A DNA stretch of 64,000 nt from the IMG/VR virus record IMGVR_UViG_3300041097_000006; one strand, written 5' to 3'. The notes beneath the pieces are model-generated. The model was not told the origin of the DNA and ran no database searches. It was given only the letters and a program-made list of their open reading frames with translations. Numbering within the stretch: the stretch's first letter is position 1; each line of letters begins with the position of its first letter. The position numbers were made by a program, and so were the translations under genes. This DNA comes from a virus. Positions 907 through 40,971 of this stretch are shown here, one piece after another.

Positions 907-1272
907 TCACACGTCTTTGTCATTACGCACCCCGTCCGATTCGACCAGCCGGCACATGAGTTCGACCATCCGCCGCCGGCCGTTCACATCAATCACGTCG
1001 GTAATTTCCAGCGTCATATACTCCGTGGTGCCCTCCGCCAGGTATCGCAGCCGCTGATTCGTGCGGTATCCGGGCAGATACCTGGTGCGGACCAGGTAGG
1101 ACTGCGCAGTCTCGAACTGCCGCGCGGCCAGAAACCGGGAGCCGCGCAGCGGCTCAACCTCGGCCCACACGGTGCCCGAGTCCTGCCACGCCAGTTCCAC
1201 CGCACCGGAGGCCACCGCGGACTCAACGGCCTCCTGCACGATCACGCGATGGCGGAGGCGCCCAGCTCTCAC
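907..1272 (-). CDS. Head-closure / head-tail adaptor (SPP1 gp16-like)
   Basis: (M)RAGRLRHRVIVQ...W..VWAEVEPLRG..F..A...RTRY...EI..VIDVNGRRR.VEL.C; GTG start overlapping the upstream stop. Confidence 0.88.
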   Translation of the reverse strand: MRAGRLRHRVIVQEAVESAVASGAVELAWQDSGTVWAEVEPLRGSRFLAARQFETAQSYLVRTRYLPGYRTNQRLRYLAEGTTEYMTLEITDVIDVNGRRRMVELMCRLVESDGVRNDKDV

Positions 1273-1865
1273 AGGATCGCCCTCCGAAACGTCCGCAGCA
1301 ACTGCCACACGCCAAGCGGCACCTCGGCAACGGTGGTGCCAGTAATGGTCTGCTCGCGGTTTTCGTACAGGTGGCCCACGACCAGCAGGGCGGCTTGTTT
1401 GATCCGCAGGGGCAGGGGGTCCTCGTCGGCCGGGCTCAGGCTGTCGGTGTAGCCCGCCGTGAAATCGACTTGCACGGAGTCCGGCCAGTGCCGATGCTCC
1501 GGGTAATCCGCCTGCCAGGACCGCACCACGTGGCCTTCCGATGTGACCTCATACAACGCGGGGTCCAGCACCTGACGCACGCCGTCCGTGTCCAGGTACG
1601 TCACCTGCGCCACGCTCCGCACCGGCCGCAGCGGTAGGACAATGGTATCCGGTAGGTCGTCCAGCGCGTACCGCCAGTCCGAGGGCGAAACGGACAGCCC
1701 ACAGTGGTCTTCGACGTACTCCCGGGCCACGGTGACCATCGAGGTAATCAGGTCTAGGTCGGGGTGCGCCGGACTCTCGCCGTACCCATCCACGCGGAGA
1801 TGCGTAAACGCCTCGGCCACGGTGACCGGCTCCCACGCCGGTTGTGTCAGTCGAACTAGGCTCAC
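1269..1865 (-). CDS. Head-tail connector (HK97 gp6-like)
   Basis: EPVTVAEAFTHLRVD...LITSMVTVAREYVE...V.VDFTAGY...IKQAALLVVGHLYENRE. Confidence 0.92.
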   Translation of the reverse strand: MSLVRLTQPAWEPVTVAEAFTHLRVDGYGESPAHPDLDLITSMVTVAREYVEDHCGLSVSPSDWRYALDDLPDTIVLPLRPVRSVAQVTYLDTDGVRQVLDPALYEVTSEGHVVRSWQADYPEHRHWPDSVQVDFTAGYTDSLSPADEDPLPLRIKQAALLVVGHLYENREQTITGTTVAEVPLGVWQLLRTFRRAIL

Positions 1866-2491
1866 GCCGCGGCCCTCCGGAAAACGAACGTCTCAATGTC
1901 CTCCCGCCCCGCTGACTGCTCCATGCTGTTCGCATGGCACTGCTCCAACCCGAACCGCCCCATGAAATCCCGAATGCCCTCGCGGGTGAAATACCAGCAG
2001 TGTTCGTCCCGCCTGTAATGCTTCGACCCCATCACATGCGCGGCGTCGCGGAACACGGGGCAGGACACGAACACGTAGGACTGCACGGACTGGAGCAGCT
2101 GCGAGGGGTTGTGAATGTGCTCCAGCGAATCCCAAAAGCACAGCGCCCCCGCCGGCTCCGCGTAGGGGTCCGCCCACCGGCCAGTTTCCCGCAGCCAGGC
2201 TTCGGCGTATCGATTCACGTCGTACCCGCGGGCACCCCGTTTTTCCGTCACGAAACGCCCGCCCCCGATGCCAACGTCGACCACGCCGCCGTTATAGAAG
2301 CATTCCACCAGGTCGATGCGCATCTCCGTGAGCCGGGCGCCGATGGAAGTCTGGTCCATTTGCAGGTATCGCTCCCAATACGCTAGGCCATACGGGGCCT
2401 CGCGCACGGGATACCAGCCGATGCCCCGGTCAGGCAGCCAAATCAGCTGATCGGCGGTCAGCGAATCGAGTAGCGAATAATCGAGCGTCAT
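1862..2491 (-). CDS. Class I SAM-dependent methyltransferase (Methyltransf_23-like, probably glycan/small-molecule)
   Basis: VVDVGIGGGRFV motif I, GYDVN, CFWDSLEHI, EHCWYFT; start trimmed to MTLDY. Confidence 0.8.
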   Translation of the reverse strand: MTLDYSLLDSLTADQLIWLPDRGIGWYPVREAPYGLAYWERYLQMDQTSIGARLTEMRIDLVECFYNGGVVDVGIGGGRFVTEKRGARGYDVNRYAEAWLRETGRWADPYAEPAGALCFWDSLEHIHNPSQLLQSVQSYVFVSCPVFRDAAHVMGSKHYRRDEHCWYFTREGIRDFMGRFGLEQCHANSMEQSAGREDIETFVFRRAAA

Positions 2492-3320
2492 GATCGAACC
2501 CACTGATGGTTTTATTGCACGCGTGGCCCCACGAACTACAACGGCAGAATTCATCCGGCATCGCCGGGAAAATCCGATGCCCCCCGACCAGGGGACCTAA
2601 CAGCCGCTCCGGCCCGTTATCCGCCCCCCACCCTCCGAATACCAGCAGCAACGGGGTGCCAAACGTCAGGGCCGCGGGCACGACCCACCCGGGGCCGCCG
2701 ACTGCACACGCGGCCCGCGCGAACGCCCCCATCAGATCCGCCGGATGGACCTCCCCCGCATACCACCGGCCGTCCAGCCGCGGCTGCGGCCCTGGCGCGA
2801 GCCATTCGTCGCGGCCATGCAGATCCGCGAACCCGTAAGCCCGGAGCCCCGCCTCGACTGCCGCCGCAACCCCCCGCGCCAGGTACTGAGGGTCGGGGTT
2901 GCGCGCGTCCGCCCGCCACTCCGCCCGAATCGTGGCGGGCCGAAAAAACACGTAGGGGCTACCGCCCGGCGTAAACGCCCCCACCGGGGGCGGAACGAAC
3001 TCCGCCGGGCGCCGTGCCTCGCCGAGGTCGTCAAGCAATGCCTCCGTGATCGACACCCCCTTGCGGGCGGCGTAGTGCCAGCGCCGCACCGTGGCGCCCG
3101 CGGGGGCGGCGTGCCAGGACGACGCCGGCTGGCGCCTCACGTTCTTGCCCTGCGTGCGCAGCTTCGTGTTCGGCCGCACGCATTTGATTGGCATATCGGC
3201 GTAAAGCTCCGGCCAGGGGGTTGCGAGATACACCCCCTCCCACCCGAGCGCACGCAACACCGCCCGTTGATACAGGTTGTCCCCGAGGCCGTGCATGCCC
3301 TCAATCAGCAACGGTCTCAA
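2430..3320 (-). CDS. GT-B glycosyltransferase, GT9/heptosyltransferase-like
   Basis: N-terminal GMHGLGDNLYQRAVLRAL and C-terminal VGGPGWVVPAALTFGTPLLLVFGG; probable TTG start after GGAGG (start uncertain). Confidence 0.7.
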   Translation of the reverse strand: MRPLLIEGMHGLGDNLYQRAVLRALGWEGVYLATPWPELYADMPIKCVRPNTKLRTQGKNVRRQPASSWHAAPAGATVRRWHYAARKGVSITEALLDDLGEARRPAEFVPPPVGAFTPGGSPYVFFRPATIRAEWRADARNPDPQYLARGVAAAVEAGLRAYGFADLHGRDEWLAPGPQPRLDGRWYAGEVHPADLMGAFARAACAVGGPGWVVPAALTFGTPLLLVFGGWGADNGPERLLGPLVGGHRIFPAMPDEFCRCSSWGHACNKTISGFDHDARLFATRFADRRSADLAA

Positions 3321-4047
3321 GGGGCCTCCGCTCGAAACACCGTAGCGCGGTCTCGCGCGACGCATTGATGACCTCCACCCCGTTGAGCGCCAGGTCCAGC
3401 GCCAACGGCCCGAATTTTTCGATCCACACGTCATACGGAGATTCAACGTTCAGGCCCGCCGGGTGGTCACCGAACCAGTGCTTGCGGCCCCCTTTGCCCC
3501 TCCGCATGTCAAACCCGAGCAGCACCATGCGGGACGCTCCGGCATGGTATGCCAGGTTCATAGCCTGATATCCGGAGTTTCCACCCTCATGGATACGCCC
3601 CGCATCGAGGCACAGGCCCCGCCCGTTCGATGACGGGACGTGGTGCAGGCCGTACTGCGCGGCAGCCTCCGAGTCCCGCGTGTAGCACTTGCCGCGCAGA
3701 CCCGCCGGCAAGTCGGCATGATGCGCACGCCAGAATTTCCCATCGCACGCATACAGCGCGTCCAGCTCCGGCAGCATGCGATACGCATCATTCACACCGA
3801 GCATCTTCCAGCCGCGCGCTTTCGCCGCACGCACGTCCGATTCCACCAGGGACGGGCCGCCCGCGACGATACACACCGTGGCCCGCTCCCACATGCACCG
3901 GTACGCCGGGGCGGATACCAGGCGGCACGCCTGCCCGCGGGCCTCCAGTCGGGCCGCGCGCTGCGGGGTGACGTGCACAACGTCCCCCGGCATCGGCTTG
4001 CCTTCCGTGCCCACGTAGCGCCGCAAGACTCGCATTGCAATTTGCAT
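3301..4047 (-). CDS. DUF115/MAF_flag10 (Maf-like) putative glycosyltransferase with short N-terminal extension
   Basis: CIVAGGPSL...GVNDAY...LYACD..W...GGNSGYQAMNLAYHAGASRMVLLGFDM...VINAS. Confidence 0.7.
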   Translation of the reverse strand: MQIAMRVLRRYVGTEGKPMPGDVVHVTPQRAARLEARGQACRLVSAPAYRCMWERATVCIVAGGPSLVESDVRAAKARGWKMLGVNDAYRMLPELDALYACDGKFWRAHHADLPAGLRGKCYTRDSEAAAQYGLHHVPSSNGRGLCLDAGRIHEGGNSGYQAMNLAYHAGASRMVLLGFDMRRGKGGRKHWFGDHPAGLNVESPYDVWIEKFGPLALDLALNGVEVINASRETALRCFERRPLETVAD

Positions 4048-4104
4048 AACGCCCCCGGGGAAAAAGGGGGCCGGCCCCACAGACCGACCCCAACCCCGCC
4101 CCTG

Positions 4105-5322
4105 TTAGAACGTGCCCGTCACCAGCGCGAGCGGCCGATAGACCGTTAGAGCCAGGCGCTCTTCGCACAGGATCGCCACCATGTTTTTCACGAAAAAATC
4201 GCTGTGCGATTCGCTGATGCGGATGTTGGCATCCTCCCGGTCCCACACCTGCGCGCCCAGCTGGAACGCTCCCACCAGGAACGACCCCGTGGCCATGCTG
4301 TTCGTCGGCACCACCGGGCGGCCCCACACCATCGGGGCGCGCTGCATGGACGGGTCGCCGAACAGATAACGGCCCTGCGTGTCCTTGAGCAGCAGCAGTT
4401 CGGCCCAATCGACATGAGACAGCACCACGCCGTCCCCGACGTACTCGGAGCCGGTGGTCACCTGGAGCAGCGCCCGGAGGATCGTATCAAGCCGCTGGTC
4501 TCCCGACACCGCGCCGGAATACGCCGTGGCCTGGTTCATGAGGCCGTCCAGCGTGCCGCCGGTGCCGTCGCCGTTGAGGATTTCGTCCTCTTCCTCCAGC
4601 TTGAGACCGTAGGTCAGGCGGTTATCGATGTACCCCATCAGCATGCCGGCATCGGACAGCACCTGGCGCGATGCGGGAATCCAGTGCGCCACGGTGATAA
4701 CCGCCGCGGATTCGAGCGTGAACGTGATGCCCGATTCGGCCTTCGCCACGTTTTCACGGTTCGGGCTCGAATACTGCGGCGCCGCGGAATTTGTGAAAAC
4801 GTTTTCGCGGGCATACTCCACCACGTTGGACCCCGTGACCCCAGTGGGGATCAAGCTGCGGATGGTAAGCTGCCGCTCGGATGGCATGACCATCGCCACC
4901 CGATCCGCGGGGACCAGGGGCTGGCTGGCGCCGGTGGCGTTGACGATAGCCGTCTTGCTCGGAAACAGCGTTTTCAGAGCAACGGCGTCCATCGCCTTCG
5001 CCCGCGAACCCAGCGCGGCCGCGGCCCTCCACTCGTCGGACTCCGCCACCAGTTGACCGGGCGTCTTGACGCCGCGGGCTTCCGGCTCGACGTGGCGTTT
5101 CAGGGCGGCATCGGCCTTCTGCTCGGCGTCCAGGATGCGCGCTTGCAGCTCGGTCGACTTCTCTCCGAGCTTGACCAGCTCTTCGTTCGTCTTGGTGGTG
5201 ATCGCCGAAAGCGTCTTGACCTCGTGCAGGGCCTGATCCATCGCCTGCTGAGTCTGATCCTTCACGTCCTTGAGGCCCTGCTTCAAGACCTCCTGCACTT
5301 CCTTGATTTCATCGGGTTCCAT
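4105..5322 (-). CDS. Major capsid protein, HK97 family (with coiled-coil delta domain)
   Basis: N-terminal coiled coil; KAES.ITF...TVAHWIPASRQVLSDA, EEDEILNGDGTG, FVKNMVAILCEERLALTVYRP. Confidence 0.97.
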   Translation of the reverse strand: MEPDEIKEVQEVLKQGLKDVKDQTQQAMDQALHEVKTLSAITTKTNEELVKLGEKSTELQARILDAEQKADAALKRHVEPEARGVKTPGQLVAESDEWRAAAALGSRAKAMDAVALKTLFPSKTAIVNATGASQPLVPADRVAMVMPSERQLTIRSLIPTGVTGSNVVEYARENVFTNSAAPQYSSPNRENVAKAESGITFTLESAAVITVAHWIPASRQVLSDAGMLMGYIDNRLTYGLKLEEEDEILNGDGTGGTLDGLMNQATAYSGAVSGDQRLDTILRALLQVTTGSEYVGDGVVLSHVDWAELLLLKDTQGRYLFGDPSMQRAPMVWGRPVVPTNSMATGSFLVGAFQLGAQVWDREDANIRISESHSDFFVKNMVAILCEERLALTVYRPLALVTGTF

Positions 5323-5333
5323 CTTGCATTCCT

Positions 5334-5936
5334 TTAAAAAGCGTTGAATTCGTTCCGCATAACTTCCGCCAGGCTGGGCGCAGCGTCCCGCCGTCCCGAC
5401 ATCGTGCGGAATCCCCCCGCAGCAATGGTAACCGCCTGGGTCTTGCTAAACCCTGCATCCCGCAGGAATTCCTCAAATTCTCGAATGGTCTTGACCGCAG
5501 ATACGCCGGCCGCCACGTTCATCGGGAACGTCACCAACGAAATTTCCCACAGCTTAAGCGCGGTCAACTTACGCACTCCACCCTTCGTAATCTCCGCCCC
5601 GCCCGGCAGCACGTCGTACCCAAACGACATGCCGCGCACACTGCGCGCCTTCATGTGCGCTAGGGCCACCTGAGAACGGGGATCTTCCAAGACCAGGCGC
5701 CCCTCGAACGCGAGGCCGTGCTTGTCACTCTTGACCCGCGCGGTGCCAATGGGCTGGTCCGAACGATGCTGCCACAGCATGACGACGCGGCCATCGGCGT
5801 TCGCCTCAAACTCCTTGAACGCCCCGGCTTGCACCACGTCGCCGCCGCGGTCCACGTTGCCGTACACTGACGCGTAGCCGGAGAACTCCCCCGCATCGTC
5901 CGCCTTGAACTCCGTTTCGCATGACAAGAATTTCAT
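5334..5936 (-). CDS. Prohead maturation protease (HK97 gp4 / peptidase S78)
   Basis: FSGYASVYGNVDRGGDVV..GAF, MLWQH...PIG, GMSFGY, LWEISLVTFPMN. Confidence 0.96.
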   Translation of the reverse strand: MKFLSCETEFKADDAGEFSGYASVYGNVDRGGDVVQAGAFKEFEANADGRVVMLWQHRSDQPIGTARVKSDKHGLAFEGRLVLEDPRSQVALAHMKARSVRGMSFGYDVLPGGAEITKGGVRKLTALKLWEISLVTFPMNVAAGVSAVKTIREFEEFLRDAGFSKTQAVTIAAGGFRTMSGRRDAAPSLAEVMRNEFNAF

Positions 5937-7168
5937 GCCTCACCCCCTGTTCCGATCTGTGATACCGGCGCCATGTTAACCTGCGCGGTGTAGGCACTCA
6001 TGCCGGGGTCATCGGACGGCGCTAAGTTCTCGCGCACGCGGACTTCATTCCGCGACATGACGCCGTTTTGCAAGAACACCGAGTACAACCCGGCCCGGCC
6101 CGGCGCATCGGCCCGACGCAGCGCGTCCACATCGAACCGGAGGAAATACCGGCCCCGCTGTTCCACGGGCAGCAGCGCCCGGGCAAAGCTTTGCTCGTAC
6201 CGCGTCAGGTACGGTAGGAGCGTGAATTGTAAAAACCCCTCGGCATATTTTTCCAAGCTGTTGTAACTCGCCGAATCCTGGGCCATGACCAGATATGGCG
6301 GCACCCGGTAGATGCGGCATATCTCTTCGACCTCGAACTTCCGTGTCTCAAGAAACTGCGCGTCTTCAAGCGGCATAGTAACCTGCTTGATGTCCATGCC
6401 GCCTTCGAGCAGCTTCACACTATGCGCGTTGGTTAAGCCGGTCCAAAGGTCGTTCAGGATCTTCCGCGCGGTCTCACGCTCTTTGTCGCCCAGCCAGTCC
6501 TTTGCCAGCACCACCGCGCTAGACACCGCACCCTGCTTGAAAAACCGTGCCCCGAAACTCTCGGCGGCCAGGCCGTACCCGATAGCCTGCCGGGCGTACC
6601 CAACCGGCGAGAGCCCCAGGTACCCGTTACTGCCAAACCCTTTGAGGTGCCACACCGCGGACTGCGGTAGCAGCGCACCCCCGCGCCGGTACTCCATCGT
6701 CCCGTCGGACAGCACCCGCGCCGTAATCGTCGGGTCCGGGGTAATTGACGTAGGCATGCCCCGTGTGACCGACCGCTCCACGTAGCTATAGGAATTCCCC
6801 GCGAGACACAGGGCCGATACTTGCGCCTCGCGCAGATCCTGCGGGGTCATCCACAGGTTCGGGCTGCCGTTCAGCAGGCCAGCCAGTTCATGGTCCAAGA
6901 CCGGAACCGCGGTGCCGTCCCTGCGCCGCTCGTAGATACCCCAAGGTAGGCCCGCGATGGTCTCCGACAACAGGCGCACGCATGACCACACAGTGGTCAG
7001 GCGGAGAGCCGTATCCTCCGAGATGGTGATACCCGCGTCGGTATCGACGCCCAGGATGCGCCGAATAAACGCTTCGTCCGTGAGCGAGTACGTGCGGCCC
7101 CCGGCGGCCTTCGTGCCGCCGAACAAGCGCCGCAGCAACCCGCCTACAGGACGGGGTTGTTTAGCCAT
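5933..7168 (-). CDS. Portal protein, HK97 family
   Basis: VWSCVRLLSETIAGLPW, GLSPV.YAR..IG, DAQFLETRKF.VEEICRIYRVPP, GVMSRNEVR..ENL. Confidence 0.96.
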   Translation of the reverse strand: MAKQPRPVGGLLRRLFGGTKAAGGRTYSLTDEAFIRRILGVDTDAGITISEDTALRLTTVWSCVRLLSETIAGLPWGIYERRRDGTAVPVLDHELAGLLNGSPNLWMTPQDLREAQVSALCLAGNSYSYVERSVTRGMPTSITPDPTITARVLSDGTMEYRRGGALLPQSAVWHLKGFGSNGYLGLSPVGYARQAIGYGLAAESFGARFFKQGAVSSAVVLAKDWLGDKERETARKILNDLWTGLTNAHSVKLLEGGMDIKQVTMPLEDAQFLETRKFEVEEICRIYRVPPYLVMAQDSASYNSLEKYAEGFLQFTLLPYLTRYEQSFARALLPVEQRGRYFLRFDVDALRRADAPGRAGLYSVFLQNGVMSRNEVRVRENLAPSDDPGMSAYTAQVNMAPVSQIGTGGEA

Positions 7169-8850
7169 CCAGATATCCCCTTGTCTTCCTCGCTCCGCAC
7201 CGCAGCCCGCGACATGCCCATGAATATGGCAATCGCCCCGTCAATTTTCTGATCCGCCGCTTGCTTGACGGGTGAGTGCAGCCCCTTCGTGCTCGGCTTC
7301 CCAACAACGTTCGACAGGCACCACGTGGTGACCGGGTTCCCGTCGTGGTGCACTCGCCCGTCCACCAGGGCGGCGATGAAGTCGTCAACCGGCAGGGCGA
7401 AATTCCACGGTTTCTGCTGGAACTCTACTATATCTAGGGAATCGCCGACAATCTCCCCCACATCTAGGGCTACCTGCTGCGCGTTGAAAGGGTCGAAGAT
7501 GAATTCCCGGGCCCCGTAGGTGCGCAAGTCCGCGGCCACCTGCTCGGTAATCAGGCCGAAGTCCACCACCGCGCCGAGGGTCGGGGTGAGATGCCCCTCG
7601 CGCACCCACCGTTCATAGCTGGTACGGTTTTTCCCAGGGGCCTCGATGGTCTCCTGGGGAAGCCAGTACCGGCCGAACAGGTAGTAGTGGGGCTTTCCGT
7701 CCAGATACTTACGGAATGTATAGCTGGCAGCGCACAGGTCGATCTTGGACGCCATATCCAGAGACCCGAAACACTCGCACCCCGCGAGGTCCGCCGGCAT
7801 CAACAGCGGGTCCGCTGCGCGCTGCCAGTGCGCCAGGGGGATCAGCTGCGAACCAGCGCCGCACCACGCATTCAGGTGCTTGGTCTTGAACCGCGCCTGT
7901 GTTGCCGGCGTCATGATGGCCGCCCGCTGTTGCGCAATCAAAAAATCCTCGAACACGGAAACCCCGTAGTTGGGGTTCGCCTTCCGCAGCGCGGCCGGGT
8001 CCGTCCAGTCGTCGGCGTCGTCGATGCCGTAGAGCAGCCCGAACGCCTCGGGGTCGTCGATGACACCCTCCAGGATTTTTTTCACCCCCTGTTCATGCTC
8101 GTAGCATGGGCCTGCCAGGTTGTCCCCGGCGGTGGTGATAATCAACAGCAGTGGCTGCTCTCGCGCGCCCATGCCGGTCTGCATCGTGTCCACTAGATCC
8201 GGTACAGCATGCTCATGGTATTCATCAACAATGGCCGCGTGCGGGCTGGCGCCGTCCCCAGGTTTTCCAATGACGGGCTCGAACCGCGAGAAGTCCGCCT
8301 CGATAACCATCGAAGCTTTCAGTACCTCAATCCCGGCCGCCTCCAGCAAGTCCGGCGTTTTCTCGGCCATGAGCCGCGCCGGCCGGAACACCTCCCACGC
8401 CTGCCTTTCCGTTGTGGCACCGCTGTACACCTCCGCACCGTGTTCCCCATCCGCGCAGAAGAGCGCCAGGCCGATGGCCGCGGCCAGTACTGACTTACCG
8501 TTCTTGCGGGGGATTCGCAAGTATGCCGAACGGAAACGGCGCAGGCCGTCCTTATGACGCCGCCATCCGAAAATGTTGCACACGATGAACGACTGCCACG
8601 GTGCCAGTATCAGCATCTGCCGTTGCGCGGCCCACTTGCCCTTGACGTGCGGCAGAGCCTCGATGAACCGACACACGCGCTCGGCTTCGTCGACGTCGAA
8701 ATAGTACGGGTGCCCCGGCGTGTCTGACTCGGCCAGGTCGTTCAGGAACCGTTCGCACGCGCGGACTACCCACGCGCAATTGGGGATGGCCCCGTCGATT
8801 ACACCGTGCGCATAATCGAGTGCTGCCTGGACGTGGGGGCAATCAGCCAC
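7144..8850 (-). CDS. terL: Terminase large subunit (Terminase_1, HK97-like)
   Basis: Walker A IPRKNGKS, Walker B IVDEYHEH, ITTAG, nuclease LDMASKIDL and KIDGAIA. Confidence 0.97.
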   Translation of the reverse strand: MADCPHVQAALDYAHGVIDGAIPNCAWVVRACERFLNDLAESDTPGHPYYFDVDEAERVCRFIEALPHVKGKWAAQRQMLILAPWQSFIVCNIFGWRRHKDGLRRFRSAYLRIPRKNGKSVLAAAIGLALFCADGEHGAEVYSGATTERQAWEVFRPARLMAEKTPDLLEAAGIEVLKASMVIEADFSRFEPVIGKPGDGASPHAAIVDEYHEHAVPDLVDTMQTGMGAREQPLLLIITTAGDNLAGPCYEHEQGVKKILEGVIDDPEAFGLLYGIDDADDWTDPAALRKANPNYGVSVFEDFLIAQQRAAIMTPATQARFKTKHLNAWCGAGSQLIPLAHWQRAADPLLMPADLAGCECFGSLDMASKIDLCAASYTFRKYLDGKPHYYLFGRYWLPQETIEAPGKNRTSYERWVREGHLTPTLGAVVDFGLITEQVAADLRTYGAREFIFDPFNAQQVALDVGEIVGDSLDIVEFQQKPWNFALPVDDFIAALVDGRVHHDGNPVTTWCLSNVVGKPSTKGLHSPVKQAADQKIDGAIAIFMGMSRAAVRSEEDKGISGWLNNPVL

Positions 8851-9274
8851 GTGAGAGCAGCCCTCTGAACGCGTTCGCTCTTGGTGCCACGGGCAGACCG
8901 CGCATGACCTCCCCGCGCCCGGTGGGCGTCAGGCCCAGAGCCCGTAGGATCACGAACAGCCGGTTCAGCAAAGCCGGTTCCATGAACGCCCCATCCGCGC
9001 GGAACCGCGTCAGCAGGACCGCGGCCATCTCCACCACGAAGGCATCCGAAGTTTTCAGGGCCCCGGGAGGGGCGGCCCGTACCAGTTCGGCATAGCACAG
9101 AGCCGACTCCCACCCCATGTGATCGGGCGGAATGGGCTCCAGATCGGGCAAGCCCCCGGGTGCAGGTGTGCCCCCGGGTGCAGGCGGGCCGGAGGGCGCC
9201 GGGGCGGCGCGACGCTGCGGGTTTTTTTTGTACGCCCCCCGCAGCTCTAGGACGTTGGTCGGTAGCCGGCGCAT
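8843..9274 (-). CDS. terS: Terminase small subunit (P27 family)
   Basis: RRLPTNVLELRG N-terminus, LGLTPTGR C-terminal motif, directly upstream of terL. Confidence 0.88.
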   Translation of the reverse strand: MRRLPTNVLELRGAYKKNPQRRAAPAPSGPPAPGGTPAPGGLPDLEPIPPDHMGWESALCYAELVRAAPPGALKTSDAFVVEMAAVLLTRFRADGAFMEPALLNRLFVILRALGLTPTGRGEVMRGLPVAPRANAFRGLLSRG

Positions 9275-9381
9275 CGCAGCATCCATCTAGTGGGTAGACG
9301 GATGCCTAATACTAGATGTAGGGGGGTTATGTCAAGGCGGGTCCCGGGGGAGGGGGCGTTAACCGACGGAATCCGGCGATG

Positions 9382-9435
9382 AACACGTTGCAGCGGACGG
9401 GCCTGACGGCCCTCCGCTGAATTCACACGTTAGGT
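9382..9435 (+). repeat. attC: attC site 1, truncated (L'', L', R' present; R'' missing)
   Basis: AACAC GTTGCAGC GGACGGGCCTGACGGCCCTCC GCTGAAT TCACAC GTTAGGT; the 7 bp where R'' should be read GGCGATG. Confidence 0.75.
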
Positions 9436-9600
9436 TTCTCGGGCACGCTTGAGCGCAGCCCGCAGCCATTCTTTACCGCCGAGGCGGTCGTACTTCGCCT
9501 TCTCGGCTTCCGTTACCCGCTCCCGAATCATGGCCGTCTGAGCCTCTTCTGGTGGCAGTGCGGGGCGTCCGCGTGGCTTCTTTGGGGCCGCCTTAGTCAT
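9430..9600 (-). CDS. Cassette 1: 56-aa ribbon-helix-helix-like DNA-binding protein
   Basis: MTKAAPKKPRGRPALPPEEAQTAMIRERVTEAEKAKYDRLGGKEWLRAALKRARET; paralogue at 12048-12215; TAA stop is the complement of the TTA in R'. Confidence 0.7.
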   Translation of the reverse strand: MTKAAPKKPRGRPALPPEEAQTAMIRERVTEAEKAKYDRLGGKEWLRAALKRARET

Positions 9601-9877
9601 TCGCGCTCCGCAGGTATTCGCGCAGCGTGAGCGTTTCTCCGGCGTGCAGCCGCTTGTTGCACTTCGGACAGGTGTATGTCGAGCCGTGCGAACCGTCGCT
9701 ATGCTCGCAATCAACCGGGTACGGTGCTTCTGACCAGCCGCGCGCCATGTTCCACAGGTCAGGCTCGCCATCGCTGCATGGCGTACCTGGCCGAGATTGC
9801 GCTCCGCAGCACTGGCAAACCGCCCGCACTTTCCCATTCCTCGCTCGCACATAATTGACCGCTTTGCTGGTGCTCAT
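9593..9877 (-). CDS. Cassette 1: zinc-ribbon protein (CxxC...CxxC), unknown function
   Basis: VCQCCG...TYTCPKCN; GGGAG 7 nt before ATG 9877; overlaps the start of the regulator gene. Confidence 0.7.
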   Translation of the reverse strand: MSTSKAVNYVRARNGKVRAVCQCCGAQSRPGTPCSDGEPDLWNMARGWSEAPYPVDCEHSDGSHGSTYTCPKCNKRLHAGETLTLREYLRSAND

Positions 9878-9909
9878 CGTTTGCTCCCGCTTTCGTTGAT
9901 CGTGCATTT

Positions 9910-9955
9910 AGTGTGGCACAACAATTAGCGGTGCGCAAGCATTATTTGTGGCACA
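9910..9955 (-). promoter_or_regulatory. Cassette 1 sigma70-like promoter with two TGTG-G-CACA operator-like palindromes
   Basis: Minus strand TTGCGC-17bp-CACACT; TGTGGCACA at 9912-9920 and 9947-9955; same layout in cassette 6. Confidence 0.6.
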
Positions 9956-9958
9956 AAA

Positions 9959-10016
9959 ACCTAACTCCACATTGCACCGGATCGCCTCCGGCGCCCGGTG
10001 AATTCAGTCGTTAGAG
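9959..10016 (+). repeat. attC: attC site 2 (58 bp, intact)
   Basis: ACCTAAC TCCAC ATT[G]CACC GG[A]TCGCCTCCGGCGCCC GGTGAAT TCAGTC GTTAGAG. Confidence 0.92.
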
Positions 10017-10273
10017 CGCATGCGAATCTTGTCCGCCGCATCCCCAGCCGTTCCGTGTTCGTGGTCGCAGATGTTTGCGCAAACCTCGCGCTCGGCGAGC
10101 ACAGCCAGCCCGACGCAGTTCTCCGCAATCGCTTCTACTTGCTTGCGCCCGTCGCGCTCGCCGGCTTTGTATGCCGCTTGCGCAACCTCTTCCGCGTCCG
10201 CTCTCCCGATCCCATGCCCGGCCATCATGGAGTGGTATCGCTTGCTGCGCTTCTTCCAGTCTGCAAAGCTCAT
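10004..10273 (-). CDS. Cassette 2: 89-aa hypothetical phage protein
   Basis: GGGAG SD; AAYKAGERDG...AEREVCANIC...AADKIRMRSN resembles small phage proteins; ends inside attC2. Confidence 0.7.
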   Translation of the reverse strand: MSFADWKKRSKRYHSMMAGHGIGRADAEEVAQAAYKAGERDGRKQVEAIAENCVGLAVLAEREVCANICDHEHGTAGDAADKIRMRSND

Positions 10274-10302
10274 TTGTCGTTCTCCCTCTTGTCGGCCGTG
10301 CG

Positions 10303-10360
10303 CTCTAACACTACGTTGCAGCCGACCGCCTTCGGCGGCGGCTGAACTTCGACGTTAGAG
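10303..10360 (+). repeat. attC: attC site 3 (58 bp, intact)
   Basis: CTCTAAC ACTAC GTT[G]CAGC CG[A]CCGCCTTCGGCGGCG GCTGAAC TTCGAC GTTAGAG. Confidence 0.95.
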
Positions 10361-10367
10361 CGCTCCA

Positions 10368-11060
10368 TCACTCCGCACCAAAGCTCGCGGCAAGCCGGTC
10401 GTCGAAAGCGTCGTCGCTCTTGTCGCGCAAGATGCCCTCGAAAAACACGTCGGGCTCAGACTCCAGCAGGAAATGCGTCGCGCACGTCCAGGCTTTCGCC
10501 TCATCCTTCGCTTCCGGCGTCATCCTCTCGCTGCGGTCAATGGCCGCGAGGTATTCGCACTTCCGGCACTCTTGGCCGAGTCCGCAGCGCAAATGGTTGT
10601 CGGGTAGCGGCATCGCCGGTCTGGGGTCGTGGCCGCACATCTTGTAGCTGGTCGGCATGCCGCGCTCGCGCTCGTACTGGAACAGCAGCACCATGCGTGG
10701 CACTTCGTCGCTGATCTTCATTGCCGAGTACATCACTCGCGGCCACTCGCCGCCGTTCTCGCGCAGCCGGTCGCTCTCGGCGTTGCAGGCAGCGTGCCAT
10801 GCGTGGTCGCCGCATCCGCGCTGGTCAGTTCCACGGTTCGCCCGTTCCAGCCGCATTCCGCGCATGTACTCGGCGCCTTCCTTCAGCTGCTCCAGCATGT
10901 TGCCGCGGTCTCTGGCATAGCGGCGCAGGTACACGCCGGCCATCAGGCGGTCCTTCTGCTCAGGCGTCATTTTGTCGCGGTCCATGCCGGGCCAGCGCCA
11001 TAGCTCTTCGTGGTCAATCCGGTTCGCCAGTGCTTCCAGTTCTTCGGGTGTTGCTGCCAT
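10368..11060 (-). CDS. Cassette 3: ~230-aa hypothetical protein with Cys/His-rich C-terminal half
   Basis: Long ORF filling the cassette; GGAG 9 nt before ATG 11060; CGH...HLRC...ECRKC...WTCATH. Confidence 0.8.
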   Translation of the reverse strand: MAATPEELEALANRIDHEELWRWPGMDRDKMTPEQKDRLMAGVYLRRYARDRGNMLEQLKEGAEYMRGMRLERANRGTDQRGCGDHAWHAACNAESDRLRENGGEWPRVMYSAMKISDEVPRMVLLFQYERERGMPTSYKMCGHDPRPAMPLPDNHLRCGLGQECRKCEYLAAIDRSERMTPEAKDEAKAWTCATHFLLESEPDVFFEGILRDKSDDAFDDRLAASFGAE

Positions 11061-11089
11061 CTTCAAATTCTCCAAGTTCTACCACCGCG

Positions 11090-11146
11090 CTCTAACTATC
11101 GCTTGCAGCGGACGCCGTACCGGCGCCGCTGAAGCTGGCGTTAGAA
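11090..11146 (+). repeat. attC: attC site 4 (57 bp, intact)
   Basis: CTCTAAC TATCG CTT[G]CAGC GG[A]CGCCGTACCGGCGCC GCTGAAG CTGGC GTTAGAA. Confidence 0.95.
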
Positions 11147-11398
11147 CCCTTGAAACTCGCCCATGCGCTCGAACTGGTCGCGGGTCAGGAATACCGGCGT
11201 CACGGTGTATTCGCAGTCGCTCTCCGCAACCATCGCCTCAGCCTCGGCCGGCTCCATCACGCACGCGGTGCCGTCGTGCTCGACGCGAGAAAATCGCTCC
11301 GTCTTGTAGTCTTCGCACCCCGGCGCATGGTCAGCCGGTGGGTATTTGCCGCCCTTCGTTTCTTGCCAGTCGCGGCACCAGTCCTTGCAGTTGCACAT
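11141..11398 (-). CDS. Cassette 4: 85-aa hypothetical protein (Cys-rich N-terminus)
   Basis: MCNCKDWC...HAPGC...; SD GGAGG comes from the attC5 spacer; TAA stop lies in R' of attC4. Confidence 0.7.
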   Translation of the reverse strand: MCNCKDWCRDWQETKGGKYPPADHAPGCEDYKTERFSRVEHDGTACVMEPAEAEAMVAESDCEYTVTPVFLTRDQFERMGEFQGF

Positions 11399-11401
11399 GG
11401 G

Positions 11402-11489
11402 TTCTAACCCTCCGTTGCAGCAGACGCCGTGAAGCGCCGCAGGTTTATCCAAGCGCCGTCGCGCGGCGCTGCTGAACTACACGTTATGC
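11402..11489 (+). repeat. attC: attC site 5 (88 bp, intact)
   Basis: TTCTAAC CCTCC GTT[G]CAGC AG[A]CGCCG...CGGCGCT GCTGAAC TACAC GTTATGC. Confidence 0.93.
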
Positions 11490-12004
11490 GACGCAGCCCG
11501 AATCTCCCACAGGGTTCGAGCAACCCCGCTTTCCTCGGTGGCATCGCGCTTGTCCCGGAGCTTCACGCTGCTTTCGGCCCAGTTCTTGCGCGGTGCCAAG
11601 TCCTTCGCTTTCACCCAACCGGCAGCGCGGAGGGATGCCCCGCTTTCGTCCTGCCGGGTGTAGGTAATACACCGCCTGTACCCCATGGCTTTCGCCGCCC
11701 GCCAAATCGCCCCATACAACATCGAGTTGGCATTTCTGGTTCCATCGGTGCAAGTGCGGTTAACTTCCAAGGTCAGGCCGTCGTCAAAGCACCGGGCCAC
11801 GGGTCGCCCAGCCGTAGCAACGCCAACCAGTTCGGTGCCCTGGCGCAGCCCAACCCCAAACTTCCAGCCTGTCGGCGGCTTGTTGTGTCGGCGCATCGCG
11901 GCCACGAACGCCTTGGCCTCTGCCAGTGTTATCGGCACCACATGCAAAACCGGCATAACAAGGCGGTCAAGCGGACCTGCCGAAACGGCGCTTTCGCTCA
12001 TCAT
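11477..12004 (-). CDS. Cassette 5: XF1762-family phage protein (GNAT-like fold, inferred)
   Basis: RHNKPPTGWKFGVG, LVGVATAGRPVAR.FDDGLTLEVNRTCTDGTRNANSMLYGA, ITYT..DESGASLRAAGW; start lies inside attC6. Confidence 0.8.
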   Translation of the reverse strand: MMSESAVSAGPLDRLVMPVLHVVPITLAEAKAFVAAMRRHNKPPTGWKFGVGLRQGTELVGVATAGRPVARCFDDGLTLEVNRTCTDGTRNANSMLYGAIWRAAKAMGYRRCITYTRQDESGASLRAAGWVKAKDLAPRKNWAESSVKLRDKRDATEESGVARTLWEIRAASHNV

Positions 12005-12046
12005 TTACCCTTATCTCGCGGCAGTCCGCTTACCTCTACGTTAGGT
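11953..12046 (+). repeat. attC: attC site 6 (94 bp, intact)
   Basis: GCATAAC AAGGC GGT[C]AAGC GGA[C]CTGCCG...CGGCAGTCC GCTTACC TCTAC GTTAGGT. Confidence 0.93.
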
Positions 12047-12051
12047 TTCAT
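12001..12051 (-). CDS. Possible 16-codon coupling mini-ORF through attC6 (MKPNVEVSGLPRDKGK)
   Basis: ATG overlaps the stop of the 12048-12215 gene and its TGA overlaps the ATG of the cassette 5 gene (ATGA at both ends). Confidence 0.4.
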   Translation of the reverse strand: MKPNVEVSGLPRDKGK

Positions 12052-12215
12052 TTCCGCGGCTTCCTGGCCAGCTCGCGCACAAGCCAAGCCTTCCCGCCAC
12101 GCGCTTCGTATTCAGCCTTCTGTGCCTCCGTCACCCGCTCCCGAATCATGGCCGTCTGCGCTTGGTCAGGCGGTAGCGCAGGACGGCCGGGCTGTCGTTT
12201 CTCGGCCTTGGTCAT
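12048..12215 (-). CDS. Cassette 6: 55-aa ribbon-helix-helix-like DNA-binding protein (absent from ORF track)
   Basis: Hand translation MTKAEKRQPGRPALPPDQAQTAMIRERVTEAQKAEYEARGGKAWLVRELARKPRK; 28/36 identical to the cassette 1 regulator core. Confidence 0.75.
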   Translation of the reverse strand: MTKAEKRQPGRPALPPDQAQTAMIRERVTEAQKAEYEARGGKAWLVRELARKPRK

Positions 12216-12403
12216 GCGGCAATCGCATCCACGCCAGGAGCGCGAATCACAAGATCATTGCTGCCGCAATCCGGGCAACAATAGTTGTCCACCTTGGTCA
12301 AGGTGCCATCGGCCTTCCAGCCGGTCCAAGGCTTGTTCTCCCGCTCTTCCAGCGGGAGAATTACGCGGCACTTCATGCAACGGAAATGGGTCTCGGTTTT
12401 CAT
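12212..12403 (-). CDS. Cassette 6: 63-aa zinc-ribbon protein
   Basis: FRCMKCR...YCCPDCGSNDL; GGAGG SD before ATG 12403; ATGA-coupled to the regulator. Confidence 0.7.
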   Translation of the reverse strand: MKTETHFRCMKCRVILPLEERENKPWTGWKADGTLTKVDNYCCPDCGSNDLVIRAPGVDAIAA

Positions 12404-12414
12404 CTTCGCCTCCA

Positions 12415-12558
12415 TTACTTCGGGGCGCGTTGCGTAACTTTGAGCTGACCCTTCAGGTGGCCTTCGAGAATTTCGATCTCGTAGAACATCCCGCCGTGAA
12501 TGGTCATGGTCTTGCCGGTATAGCGGGCTAGGTCGCCGTAGAAGTAGGTGGTTTTCAT
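12415..12558 (-). CDS. Cassette 6: 47-aa hypothetical protein
   Basis: MKTTYFYGDLARYTGK...; GGAG SD; first gene after the cassette promoter. Confidence 0.65.
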   Translation of the reverse strand: MKTTYFYGDLARYTGKTMTIHGGMFYEIEILEGHLKGQLKVTQRAPK

Positions 12559-12589
12559 GTTGCGCTCCGCGTTCGTTGATGGTGTAGTT

Positions 12590-12634
12590 ATTGTGGCGCA
12601 ATAATCAACCATTGTCAAGCGTTTTCGTGGCACA
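12590..12634 (-). promoter_or_regulatory. Cassette 6 sigma70 promoter with two operator-like palindromes
   Basis: Minus strand TTGACA-17bp-CACAAT; TGTGGCGCA at 12592-12600 and CGTGGCACA at 12626-12634. Confidence 0.7.
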
Positions 12635-12637
12635 GAA

Positions 12638-12707
12638 ACCTAACTCCACATTCCACCGGACGGCCCAAATCTGCGCTTTGGTCCTCCGGTGAATTCAGCC
12701 GTTGGGC
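12638..12707 (+). repeat. attC: attC site 7 (70 bp, intact)
   Basis: ACCTAAC TCCAC ATT[C]CACC GG...CC GGTGAAT TCAGCC GTTGGGC; close relative of attC2. Confidence 0.92.
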
Positions 12708-13258
12708 TTCATGAAAACGTACCAGTGCGTTCCGGCCTTCTTGCCGGAGGTGTTGCCGAACAGTGGCCGCACTGGCGTCAGATCCAAGACCTCGCGCACC
12801 TTCACTTGCGTTTCGTTCCACTTGAACACGAGCACGCCGTGAGGCCTCAGCACGCGGAAGCATTCGGCAAAGCCGGCGCGCAGGTCGTCGCGCCAGTCCT
12901 GGCCGAGCTTCCCGTACTTCGCCGCCAGCCAGGAGCGCGGGCCAGCGCGCACCAAATGCGGCGGGTCAAACGCTACGAGGTGGAAGCTCTCTTCCGGGTA
13001 TGGCAGCGCCCGGAAGTCCATCATCACGTCCGGCTCAATGCACAGCGTTCGCGTGCCATCCTCGCGGCCGTGCGAGCGGTCGGTCACGGTCACGGTCTCG
13101 CTGCGCCGGTCTCCGAACACGACGTCCGGGTTCTCGCGGTCAAACCAGAACATCCGGCTACCGCAGCAGGGGTCAAGCACGCGCGGCATGCAGCCCAACC
13201 CGTCGGTCAACACGGACTGCCCGCCAGCAGCGTTCGTTCGCGCGTTGTGGTCGCTCAA
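12695..13258 (-). CDS. Cassette 7: phage SAM-dependent (putative DNA amino-) methyltransferase
   Basis: VLDPCCGSRMFWF, DFRALPY, VAFDPPHL, ECFRVLRPHGVLVFKWNE; SD AAGGAG and TTG start inside attC8. Confidence 0.85.
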   Translation of the reverse strand: MSDHNARTNAAGGQSVLTDGLGCMPRVLDPCCGSRMFWFDRENPDVVFGDRRSETVTVTDRSHGREDGTRTLCIEPDVMMDFRALPYPEESFHLVAFDPPHLVRAGPRSWLAAKYGKLGQDWRDDLRAGFAECFRVLRPHGVLVFKWNETQVKVREVLDLTPVRPLFGNTSGKKAGTHWYVFMKPNG

Positions 13259-28333: not shown

Positions 28334-29236
28334 TCACGTCATAATAATCATGGCGGGTTGTGCGGCCCCGCCGGAGACGGGCACCGTAAAAGTTTTCGTC
28401 TCACCGTTTGACCATGACACGCCGCTGAATGATGCCACGGAGACCCATGCACCGGCGGCATTGCGGTACTCAATCGTAAATGCGGTGGGCGCCTGGGTGG
28501 CCTGCGTCCCGCGGGCGCGCATCATGACTTCTGCGATCTCGTGCGCGGATTCGTCGTCCCAATCGTAGCCCACCCATTGCGGCAGGCCAGCGGCGGAGCT
28601 CCACTCCGTTGAGGTATTATCGTCGTGGCAGTTGTAGGAGCTGACGCTATCCTGCCCGAAATTACTGGAGCCGATGCCGTTTTCGGGGTCCGTAGCCGTA
28701 TCCGCCCCACCCGCCGAGGTGCGAAACTCCATCTCTGACAGACCTACCGCGGTGCCCGCCCCGACGGCGGAAACATTTACGCGCCACGCGCTTTTGTCCG
28801 CTAAGGCATTTTTCGGAAAGGTCTTCTGGTTATTGGCCTTCCAAGACGTAATGTCCGTCACGCTGAACAGCGCCGTCCAGGCCGAATTGTCGTCGGACCA
28901 TTGGAGCTCAAAATCCCGCGGGGACTGGTAGTCACTACCGTTCCGGCCCCCGATTAAAATTTCGGCTACATCGACCTCCCCGCCCGCACCGAAGTCGCAC
29001 TTGACCCATGCCGGCAGGGTAGTGTTACCCGCATGCCACTCCGTCGTGCTGTTGCCGTCGAATGCGTTGGCCACCGGGAGACCAAACCCCTCTGACGATG
29101 CTGATAGGGTTTTCCCCGCTGTAGAAATCGGCGTGCCGCCGCTGTCCCTAAACACCACTTCGGATAGCGAAGGGTACACCCCCGGGGTCGCCTGCACCGT
29201 CAGGTAGAGGCGCCAGTACCGATGCGCGGCCATCAA
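28334..29236 (-). CDS. Tail-associated protein with two tandem discoidin (F5/8 type C-like) domains
   Basis: Two repeats of W.......SE..FR...ASS....N.FD....TEW....LP.WV..D......VAE....R....P..F....W....S.T...W.....KTF. Confidence 0.75.
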   Translation of the reverse strand: MMAAHRYWRLYLTVQATPGVYPSLSEVVFRDSGGTPISTAGKTLSASSEGFGLPVANAFDGNSTTEWHAGNTTLPAWVKCDFGAGGEVDVAEILIGGRNGSDYQSPRDFELQWSDDNSAWTALFSVTDITSWKANNQKTFPKNALADKSAWRVNVSAVGAGTAVGLSEMEFRTSAGGADTATDPENGIGSSNFGQDSVSSYNCHDDNTSTEWSSAAGLPQWVGYDWDDESAHEIAEVMMRARGTQATQAPTAFTIEYRNAAGAWVSVASFSGVSWSNGETKTFTVPVSGGAAQPAMIIMT

Positions 29237-39752: not shown

Positions 39753-40345
39753 AGGATCGCCCTCCGAAACGTCCGCAGCAACTGCCACACGCCAAGCGGC
39801 ACCTCGGCAACGGTGGTGCCAGTAATGGTCTGCTCGCGGTTTTCGTACAGGTGGCCCACGACCAGCAGGGCGGCTTGTTTGATCCGCAGGGGCAGGGGGT
39901 CCTCGTCGGCCGGGCTCAGGCTGTCGGTGTAGCCCGCCGTGAAATCGACTTGCACGGAGTCCGGCCAGTGCCGATGCTCCGGGTAATCCGCCTGCCAGGA
40001 CCGCACCACGTGGCCTTCCGATGTGACCTCATACAACGCGGGGTCCAGCACCTGACGCACGCCGTCCGTGTCCAGGTACGTCACCTGCGCCACGCTCCGC
40101 ACCGGCCGCAGCGGTAGGACAATGGTATCCGGTAGGTCGTCCAGCGCGTACCGCCAGTCCGAGGGCGAAACGGACAGCCCACAGTGGTCTTCGACGTACT
40201 CCCGGGCCACGGTGACCATCGAGGTAATCAGGTCTAGGTCGGGGTGCGCCGGACTCTCGCCGTACCCATCCACGCGGAGATGCGTAAACGCCTCGGCCAC
40301 GGTGACCGGCTCCCACGCCGGTTGTGTCAGTCGAACTAGGCTCAC
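39749..40345 (-). CDS. Copy 2: head-tail connector
   Basis: Same as 1269-1865. Confidence 0.92.
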   Translation of the reverse strand: MSLVRLTQPAWEPVTVAEAFTHLRVDGYGESPAHPDLDLITSMVTVAREYVEDHCGLSVSPSDWRYALDDLPDTIVLPLRPVRSVAQVTYLDTDGVRQVLDPALYEVTSEGHVVRSWQADYPEHRHWPDSVQVDFTAGYTDSLSPADEDPLPLRIKQAALLVVGHLYENREQTITGTTVAEVPLGVWQLLRTFRRAIL

Positions 40346-40971
40346 GCCGCGGCCCTCCGGAAAACGAACGTCTCAATGTCCTCCCGCCCCGCTGACTGCT
40401 CCATGCTGTTCGCATGGCACTGCTCCAACCCGAACCGCCCCATGAAATCCCGAATGCCCTCGCGGGTGAAATACCAGCAGTGTTCGTCCCGCCTGTAATG
40501 CTTCGACCCCATCACATGCGCGGCGTCGCGGAACACGGGGCAGGACACGAACACGTAGGACTGCACGGACTGGAGCAGCTGCGAGGGGTTGTGAATGTGC
40601 TCCAGCGAATCCCAAAAGCACAGCGCCCCCGCCGGCTCCGCGTAGGGGTCCGCCCACCGGCCAGTTTCCCGCAGCCAGGCTTCGGCGTATCGATTCACGT
40701 CGTACCCGCGGGCACCCCGTTTTTCCGTCACGAAACGCCCGCCCCCGATGCCAACGTCGACCACGCCGCCGTTATAGAAGCATTCCACCAGGTCGATGCG
40801 CATCTCCGTGAGCCGGGCGCCGATGGAAGTCTGGTCCATTTGCAGGTATCGCTCCCAATACGCTAGGCCATACGGGGCCTCGCGCACGGGATACCAGCCG
40901 ATGCCCCGGTCAGGCAGCCAAATCAGCTGATCGGCGGTCAGCGAATCGAGTAGCGAATAATCGAGCGTCAT
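40342..40971 (-). CDS. Copy 2: SAM-dependent methyltransferase
   Basis: Same as 1862-2491. Confidence 0.8.
   Translation of the reverse strand: MTLDYSLLDSLTADQLIWLPDRGIGWYPVREAPYGLAYWERYLQMDQTSIGARLTEMRIDLVECFYNGGVVDVGIGGGRFVTEKRGARGYDVNRYAEAWLRETGRWADPYAEPAGALCFWDSLEHIHNPSQLLQSVQSYVFVSCPVFRDAAHVMGSKHYRRDEHCWYFTREGIRDFMGRFGLEQCHANSMEQSAGREDIETFVFRRAAA

Follow-up and report, generated by a model that had tools for sequence, protein, structure and literature searches.

What are genes for two putative glycosyltransferases and a methyltransferase doing in the middle of the head genes of a phage? This question is raised by the viral record IMGVR_UViG_3300041097_000006, in which three overlapping genes, called A, B, and C in the following, are located between the major capsid protein gene and the gene for the head-tail connector. 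The window, i.e., the whole stretch of 64,000 nucleotides (nt) that was analyzed, is a phage genome of 38,480 bp written past its own end. Bases 1-25520 are identical to bases 38481-64000 (0 mismatches), and a second copy of the three-gene module at 40342-42527 results from this repeat at the end of the window. Comparison of homologous loci, sequence profiles, and predicted structures indicates that A, B, and C form a conserved, jointly inherited cassette, and that they probably encode cooperating, late-expressed enzymes that assemble a decorated oligosaccharide. The virion itself is tentatively favored as the target. The following features form the module:

3301-4047, minus strand: gene A (P0121), putative Maf/DUF115-like (GT42-like) glycosyltransferase of 248 amino acids, ATG start
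3913-4047, minus strand: N-terminal module of A, about 45 amino acids, a separate unit in the structural model and outside the fold matches
2430-3320, minus strand: gene B (P0001), putative GT9-like glycosyltransferase of the GT-B type, 296 amino acids, TTG start six bases after GGAGG
1862-2491, minus strand: gene C, class I S-adenosylmethionine (SAM)-dependent methyltransferase of 209 amino acids, ATG start, picked by alignment with about 55 homologues

The first-pass annotation had placed three overlapping genes at 1862-4047 between capsid and connector, and these coordinates are exact, reaching from the start of A to the stop of C.

Joint inheritance of the three genes

A survey of gene order around homologues, which the first-pass annotation had named as a check, revealed that the three genes are inherited together. 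For IMG/VR it comprised the best 80 of 268 loci, which were fetched through B. C directly follows B in all 80 loci, and A is located upstream on the same strand in 77 of them; two of the three exceptions are found at contig ends. In a phage collection, B and C were present in 29 records each, in near-identical sets and always as adjacent genes, and A was present in 73 records. Among 31 loci in bacterial genomes, 28 contained C and 27 contained A. The cassette is common, the B family alone comprises 847 clusters at 50% identity in a library-wide profile search, 769 of them below an E-value of 1e-10. Therefore, B represents a discrete family and not the fringe of the canonical GT9 enzymes. A match to PF01075, the GT9 model, is present on 19% of the members of one Atlas cluster.

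Natural fusions link the enzymes to one another. A and B are fused in several proteins (e.g., P0049, P0245, and P0252), and a protein of 1214 amino acids has the arrangement A-B-B-PF01075 (P0251). B is also found fused to a second B (P0323 and P0367), to a preceding methyltransferase (P0296 and P0287), to LicD (P0285), and to PF01075 (P0311). All identifiable fusion partners of B are enzymes that build or decorate glycans, except for an intein/LAGLIDADG insertion in P0311, and none is related to DNA. These fusions are good evidence that the methyltransferase and both transferases act on the same glycan. The earlier description as a glycosylation-like module is supported in this respect by the methyltransferase-B, A-B, and A-B-B-GT9 fusions. 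One search yielded no relatives of B with 519-2000 amino acids, which is weak evidence, and the library-wide profile search did find long fusions. P0311 (1032 amino acids) has an unusual architecture, with a B domain joined to a canonical PF01075 domain into which an intein bearing a LAGLIDADG endonuclease is inserted.

The content of the cassette varies in some phages. A contig from another virus (IMGVR_UViG_3300044698_000123, L138) contains at 8914-12848, directly after a protease-capsid fusion gene, genes for a LicD-B fusion, a CDP-alcohol cytidylyltransferase, and a C-type methyltransferase. The cytidylyltransferase (137 amino acids) is closest to enzymes for ethanolamine-phosphate, glycerol-3-phosphate, and choline-phosphate, and the content of this locus suggests a phospho-alcohol decoration of the glycan. 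The PHROG label of the 137-amino acid protein, "heptose kinase/adenylyltransferase," was considered as evidence for an ADP-heptose donor and was rejected, because its nearest solved relatives are CDP-alcohol cytidylyltransferases. Longer glycans in some phages are hinted at by the locus L036, where a gene for a further B-like paralogue (5169-6011; 280 amino acids, GIGD motif) is located between A and B, and by three loci of the same kind.

Folds and conserved residues of the enzymes

Gene A encodes a member of PHROG 4603 ("alpha-2,3-sialyltransferase," 1.5e-40). Its match to Pfam PF01973 (DUF115/MptE-like) is restricted to residues 162-193 and stays, with 22.8 bits, under the cut-off of 34.6; a precomputed PF01973 match is present on many A homologues. 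NCBIfam contained no match, and single-sequence as well as profile searches of A against the PDB sequences gave no useful match. The AlphaFold (AF2) model, which was built from 38 homologues, has a predicted local distance difference test score (pLDDT) of 95.6. Structurally, it is most similar to the central domain of the flagellin glycosyltransferase Maf (5mu5), with a VIA Z of 15.5 over 181 residues and a root-mean-square deviation (rmsd) of 3.1. The Campylobacter sialyltransferases CstII (12.1) and Cst-I (11.9) follow, and pyrophosphokinases of the same fold reach a Z of 10-11.7 (MptE HPPK 11.7). The fold of the catalytic domain is thus common to A, Maf, and the GT42 sialyltransferases. Eight residues are invariant in A (G64, S66, Y99, D102, W106, D180, H190, and H195), and the GxGPS and H-containing motifs (G64, S66, D180, H190, and H195) may resemble those of CstII. 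There are also differences to Maf. A is aligned only to Maf residues 262-511 of 632 and thus represents the central domain only, lacking the flanking, flagellin-binding domains. Its neighbors are phage head and neck genes and not flagellin or nonulosonate genes, and nonulosonate synthesis genes are missing from the phage, in contrast to Maf systems.

The N-terminal module of A (residues 1-45) forms a strand-strand-helix-strand unit in the model and is absent from most A homologues. It has the pattern h.h.hR.h.G..G....G..h.h....A..L...G.A, and a weak match to DUF7210 (E 0.002) is under the cut-off. The module recurs on the A homologues P0122, P0123, P0132, P0210, and P0226 and, weakly (E about 0.007), at the N-terminus of the B homologues P0034 and P0035. 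A role in docking or targeting is conceivable for this module, which would then be exchanged between A and B enzymes. The gene orf6.5 of phage D3 was considered as a free-standing copy of the module, which was not supported (E 0.23).

Gene B encodes a member of PHROG 6804 (9.5e-68) that had no match in Pfam (E up to 1) or NCBIfam, and neither single-sequence nor profile searches against the PDB sequences yielded a useful match. The AF2 model (pLDDT 93.7) has TibC as the top Foldseek match (1e-8). The VIA Z against GT9 structures is 17.7 for 3tov (rmsd 3.5, 256 residues aligned), 17.2 for TibC, 16.4 for WaaF, and about 15 for WaaC, compared to 9.8 for the best GT-B enzyme outside of GT9. The GT9-like chains of the NADH dehydrogenase-like (NDH)-photosystem I (PSI) supercomplex reach a Z of 14. 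With hhalign, B matched the WaaC/WaaF profile with 94% probability (8.6e-8) over the C-terminal, donor-binding lobe only. A six-frame search of three prophage-bearing genomes with PF01075 recovered WaaC and WaaF and missed the B homologue.

In 33 B sequences D14, T130, R132, R140, W212, C259, C261, H266, and C268 are invariant, as are G11 and G13. The aspartate of the GLGD motif, D14, is found at the place of the catalytic aspartate of GT9 enzymes (D13 in WaaC, D110 in TibC), as judged by position. In the WaaC/WaaF alignment G12 and D13 are invariant, and the structural alignments of B begin at residue 1-2 versus residue 1 of WaaC and residue 96 of TibC. According to hhalign, R140 of B is located at WaaC K192, V/P210 at D261, and P215 at H266, and W212 is invariant instead. 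The B donor may thus differ from that of the heptosyltransferases, or may be bound as in TibC. Near the C-terminus B contains an invariant CxC-x4-HxC cluster in a stretch without counterpart in WaaC and WaaF. The B proteins constitute a GT9-like family of their own, which is unrecognized by Pfam and has this Cys/His cluster as a conserved feature.

The comparison with the autotransporter heptosyltransferases TibC and AAH (BAHT family), which act on proteins, reveals similarities as well as differences. TibC has an N-terminal beta-barrel that is needed for activity and, inserted in the C-lobe, an iron finger with the four cysteines Cys-339, 342, 358, and 370 (PMC4358343). B shares the GT9-like catalytic domain with TibC (257 residues from TibC residue 96 on). 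By position, D14 corresponds to the catalytic Asp-110 and T130 to Thr-226, and W212 is near Trp-305. Near the C-terminus, roughly where TibC has its iron finger, B contains a cysteine-rich cluster of putative metal type, but its pattern is unlike that of the TibC cysteines. B starts at the catalytic domain and lacks the beta-barrel. TibC Lys-230 lands by offset on an invariant glutamate of B, while the hhalign alignment places R140 at the WaaC lysine. Furthermore, B has no autotransporter partner, and its Z to TibC is tied with those to LPS (lipopolysaccharide)-type GT9 enzymes.

C is matched by Pfam PF13489 (Methyltransf_23) with 34.3 bits, above the cut-off of 27, and by PHROG 6564 (4e-70), whereas NCBIfam contained no match. 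SAM motif I is intact (VVDVGIGGG), and D72, G74, G76, and G78 are invariant. The solved relatives are generic, with weak profile matches to 3cc8 and UbiG. Taken together, the assignments proposed at first reading, a DUF115/Maf-like transferase, a GT9-like GT-B enzyme, and a class I methyltransferase, all hold, and of the structure searches recommended there, those of A and B returned Maf-like and GT9-like transferase folds.

The locus among the late genes of this and other phages

The late genes of the genome, which has a G+C content of about 65%, are encoded on the minus strand in the order terS, terL, portal, protease, major capsid protein, A, B, C, gp6-like connector, head completion, gp10-like, and tail genes. 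The module is flanked by the following features:

4105-5322, minus strand: major capsid protein gene of the HK97 type, upstream flank (PF05065, 2.3e-48; PHROG 10; 41% identity to HK97 gp5)
4067-4091, minus strand: terminator-like GC-rich hairpin with T-run between the capsid stop and the start of A (consensus scan; stem of 11 pairs, 8 of them GC)
1269-1865, minus strand: gp6-like head-tail connector gene, downstream flank (PF05135; PHROG 442), GTG start
907-1308, minus strand: head completion protein gene (PF05521)

The reading frames of A and B share 20 nt, those of B and C share 62 nt, and the stop codon of C overlaps the GTG start of the gp6-like gene (GTGA). This arrangement argues that A, B, and C are translationally coupled into the late head-neck operon, in line with the earlier proposal that the module shares the late structural transcript. 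A consensus scan revealed no promoter-like site inside of the module. The hairpin upstream of A might act as an attenuator, so that less of the enzymes and neck proteins than of the capsid protein would be made. However, it is no more than a lead, as terminator-like sites across the region do not outnumber those in shuffled sequences.

A megablast search against phage records yielded no close relative of the region. True homologues of A, B, and C are present in the well-known Pseudomonas phages D3 (orf7, orf12, and orf13), PAJU2 (ORF010-012), and Psp6 (genes 48-50), with 36-46% identity, in the same order, and in the late head-neck region. In D3, unlike in the window, a moron as well as the genes for adaptor and head closure intervene between A and the pair of B and C, and the A of the window has an additional N-terminal module. 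Recent records name them "alpha-2,3-sialyltransferase," "GT9 heptosyltransferase," and "methyltransferase," and the PAJU2 homologue of A is labeled "structural protein" in GenBank. Homologues in D3, PAJU2, and P1 have been on record for decades, and phage-encoded glycosylation as a kind of process is also already known. No work on the function of the cassette or its genes turned up in a literature search that covered D3, PAJU2, DUF115, heptosyltransferase, and pmgO. For D3 (L001, 5846-6409) the tblastn match to A begins at 5846 in the orf7 frame, about 100 nt upstream of the annotated start at 5951, and therefore orf7 has probably been annotated too short.

In other phages the cassette is likewise co-oriented with head, neck, or packaging genes and located among or next to them, but the exact slot varies. 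The order capsid, A, B, C, adaptor (Ad1) is shared by the window, Psp6, and two IMG/VR loci (L007 and L010), of which L010 is the closest relative. D3 and about 43 D3-like loci have the order capsid, A, adaptor (Ad1), head closure (Hc1), moron (not always present), B, C, gp10-like, and in PAJU2 A, B, and C are located between the adaptor and the gp10-like gene. B and C follow Neck1 and the tail terminator in Enterobacter phage Mulvp2, and they follow gp13, gp14, gp15, and terS in a T4-like cyanophage (cyanomyovirus). In prophages of Pantoea, Mixta, and Citrobacter A, B, and C precede terL and portal. In the Klebsiella jumbo phage Eowyn the three genes are found among unannotated genes, and in the fusion-bearing contigs L132 and L138 the cassette comes right after the capsid gene. 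P1 contains a partial version, the A-like gene pmgO and the predicted glycosyltransferase gene pmgQ behind a late promoter.

In other phages, more extensive glycosylation islands occupy the slot between the capsid and neck genes. For example, "Tetraselmis viridis virus" S20 (L130, NC_020840.1) has an island of 6.3 kb between capsid and head closure (5769-12038), which encodes two A-like proteins, a GT-D fold enzyme (PF08759, 3e-25), a GT2 enzyme, a Methyltransf_23 protein, and another annotated glycosyltransferase. The identifiable hosts are nearly all Proteobacteria; the remaining ones are a cyanobacterium, one Gemmatimonadota and one Planctomycetota metagenome-assembled genome, and one 4-kb contig binned as Acidimicrobiia. 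Lytic-type carriers include the window genome, which has its own DNA polymerase, the jumbo phage, and the T4-like cyanophage.

Possible targets of the glycan

The favored interpretation is that, during assembly, a protein of the virion (capsid, neck, or tail) receives a short, methylated oligosaccharide from the cassette enzymes. The enzymes would use nucleotide sugars of the host, because the phage genome contains no identifiable genes for sugar-nucleotide synthesis. A, which is closest in structure to the protein O-glycosyltransferase Maf, would begin the chain or attach an ulosonic acid activated with CMP. An ADP-sugar would serve B as the source of a heptose-type sugar, and C would methylate the glycan. 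The likely pay-offs would be particle stability or a shielding of the surface from antibodies, receptors, and adhesion. A virion protein is ranked first as target because of the coupling of the cassette into the head-neck operon, its presence in lytic-type phages, the protein glycosyltransferases among the top fold matches (Maf and, tied with the LPS enzymes, TibC), the "structural protein" label in PAJU2, and the precedent of mycobacteriophages. The late structural context across unrelated phage types, together with the larger islands in the same slot, lends further support. The precedent comprises phage glycosyltransferases that decorate the phages' own capsid and tail-tube subunits (Freeman et al., 2023, as cited in PMC12619734); the hosts of these phages are of the Gram-positive type, and for phages of Gram-negative bacteria such a decoration by phage enzymes is, within the reach of our literature search, not known to have been demonstrated.

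We regard this interpretation as the best available one, but it stays short of probable, and several observations weigh against it. Ser/Thr-rich tails or extensions, which were looked for as a clue to the acceptor, were not found on the capsid and tail proteins of the phage. Neither D3 nor P1, although both have been studied for a long time, is known to have a glycosylated virion protein. The P1 genes pmgO and pmgP are dispensable for plaque formation. B is missed by the GT9 Pfam model and has not kept the equivalents of WaaC D261 and H266, and its donor may therefore not be ADP-heptose. Phages whose capsid and tail proteins are unrelated share a strongly conserved acceptor-side lobe of B, in which 14 residues are invariant. 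This conservation is more easily reconciled with a generic acceptor, i.e., a sugar, a lipid, or DNA, than with one specific virion protein, except if the role of B is restricted to extending a sugar attached by A. Lastly, a shared fold is not equal to a shared function.

Recognition by B of a sugar that A has added would explain why B is conserved in spite of unrelated virion proteins. A specific version of the virion interpretation follows this line and proposes that A uses host CMP-Kdo (Kdo, 3-deoxy-D-manno-oct-2-ulosonic acid) and B host ADP-heptose, resulting in a methylated, "core-like" glycan of the Hep-Kdo type on the particle that mimics the LPS core of the host. The two donors are obvious candidates, because they are universal in these hosts, but this choice is speculative, and we consider this version unlikely. 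LPS inner-core assembly by WaaA, WaaC, WaaF, and decorating enzymes likewise comprises transfer of an ulosonic acid, heptosyl transfer by GT9 enzymes, and small decorations, with likely donors that are universal in Gram-negative hosts. In contrast to the inner-core enzymes, B is undetected by PF01075 and lacks the two WaaC residues mentioned above, and the genes are late genes of a phage.

The same likeness leads to an alternative target in the host envelope. The cassette could remodel a glycoconjugate late in infection, either the LPS inner core or another lipid-linked glycan, and thereby block the adsorption of progeny or rival phages to infected cells and debris. Canonical GT9 and CstII-type enzymes, to which the folds match, act on the cores of LPS and lipooligosaccharides, and the fusions of B to PF01075 and LicD as well as the CDP-alcohol cytidylyltransferase in one cassette are typical of decorators of LPS or teichoic acid. 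The identifiable hosts are almost all LPS-bearing, and the conserved acceptor lobe of B would suit a conserved host acceptor. Nevertheless, this alternative seems rather improbable, as the genes are tightly coupled into the head-neck operon with no promoter-like site of their own in the scan, lytic-type phages carry the cassette, and LPS made so late could presumably replace only a small part of that already present in the outer membrane. In addition, serotype conversion by D3 is assigned to other genes. The first-pass annotation had likewise argued against serotype conversion, which is indeed unlikely to take place in lysogens given the lytic-type carriers and the result of the promoter scan. 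Some other target outside of the virion, for example, a small molecule, an oligosaccharide (free or linked to a nucleotide), or a soluble protein of the host or the phage, would be consistent with the shifting position of the cassette within the late region and its dispensability in P1, both of which are often seen with accessory genes. The purpose could be counter-defense or an influence on host physiology. We know of no precedent for such a target, the location with head, neck, and packaging genes persists across very different phages, and this explanation is regarded as unlikely.

Two further explanations were given very little credence. One or more of the proteins might have lost catalysis and serve the particle as structural or scaffold components, comparable to the GT9-like PnsB1 of plant NDH. 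The label of the PAJU2 homologue and the similarity of B to the NDH-PSI chains would fit such a role, but residues at putative catalytic and donor sites are invariant in all three proteins (GPS, D180, H190, and H195 in A; GLGD14, T130, R132, R140, and GGxGW in B; SAM motif I in C). As fusions to further enzymes also speak against it, a purely structural role appears very unlikely. Still more improbable is a hypermodification of the phage DNA with sugars. Phage GT-B enzymes are reported to add Kdo-like and bulky sugars to DNA, with Kdo or heptose placed on 5-hydroxymethylcytosine, and thus host LPS precursors can be used on DNA (Pyle et al., bioRxiv 10.1101/2023.12.21.572611), a use of host sugars by phage GT-B enzymes that is of the kind proposed for the cassette. 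Those enzymes resemble T4 beta-GT and are encoded next to cytosine methyltransferase and 5mYOX genes, and such partners are missing here: no TET/5mYOX, thymidylate synthase-like hydroxymethylase, or C5-methyltransferase gene was found in the genome of the window. The genome does contain a gene for a Mom-like DNA modification protein (11477-12004, minus strand; PHROG 1384, 3e-37) and one for a DNA methyltransferase of the N6/N4 type (12695-13258, minus strand; PHROG 954, 3.5e-72), but both are located between terS and the HNH region in an integron-like cassette array, apart from the glycosylation module. The absence of DNA-related fusion partners of B and its far higher fold similarity to GT9 than to other GT-B enzymes point in the same direction. 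D3 and P1 have ordinary, restrictable DNA. DNA modification, against which the first-pass annotation had argued, is thus unlikely.

The choice between a virion protein and the other targets has consequences beyond this genome, and it is directly testable, because the cassette is present in the cultivable phages D3, PAJU2, and Psp6 and, in part, in P1. If the virion is the target, the glycan coat would bear on phage stability, adsorption, and antibody recognition in phage therapy against Pseudomonas. Should in addition the Hep-Kdo version be true, a surface glycan mimicking the LPS core of the host would be a trait of many phages with Gram-negative hosts, among them the P. aeruginosa D3 group. 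If, in contrast, LPS or something else is modified, the cassette would represent a widespread late-gene system for host remodeling that has so far been unnoticed.

A further observation concerns the tail region of the genome. The gene at 28334-29236 (minus strand) encodes a tail or virion protein of 300 amino acids with two internal repeats, which look by eye like sugar-binding domains of the discoidin/F5_F8 type C kind. Several PHROG families of virion structural and tail proteins each match this protein in two stretches.

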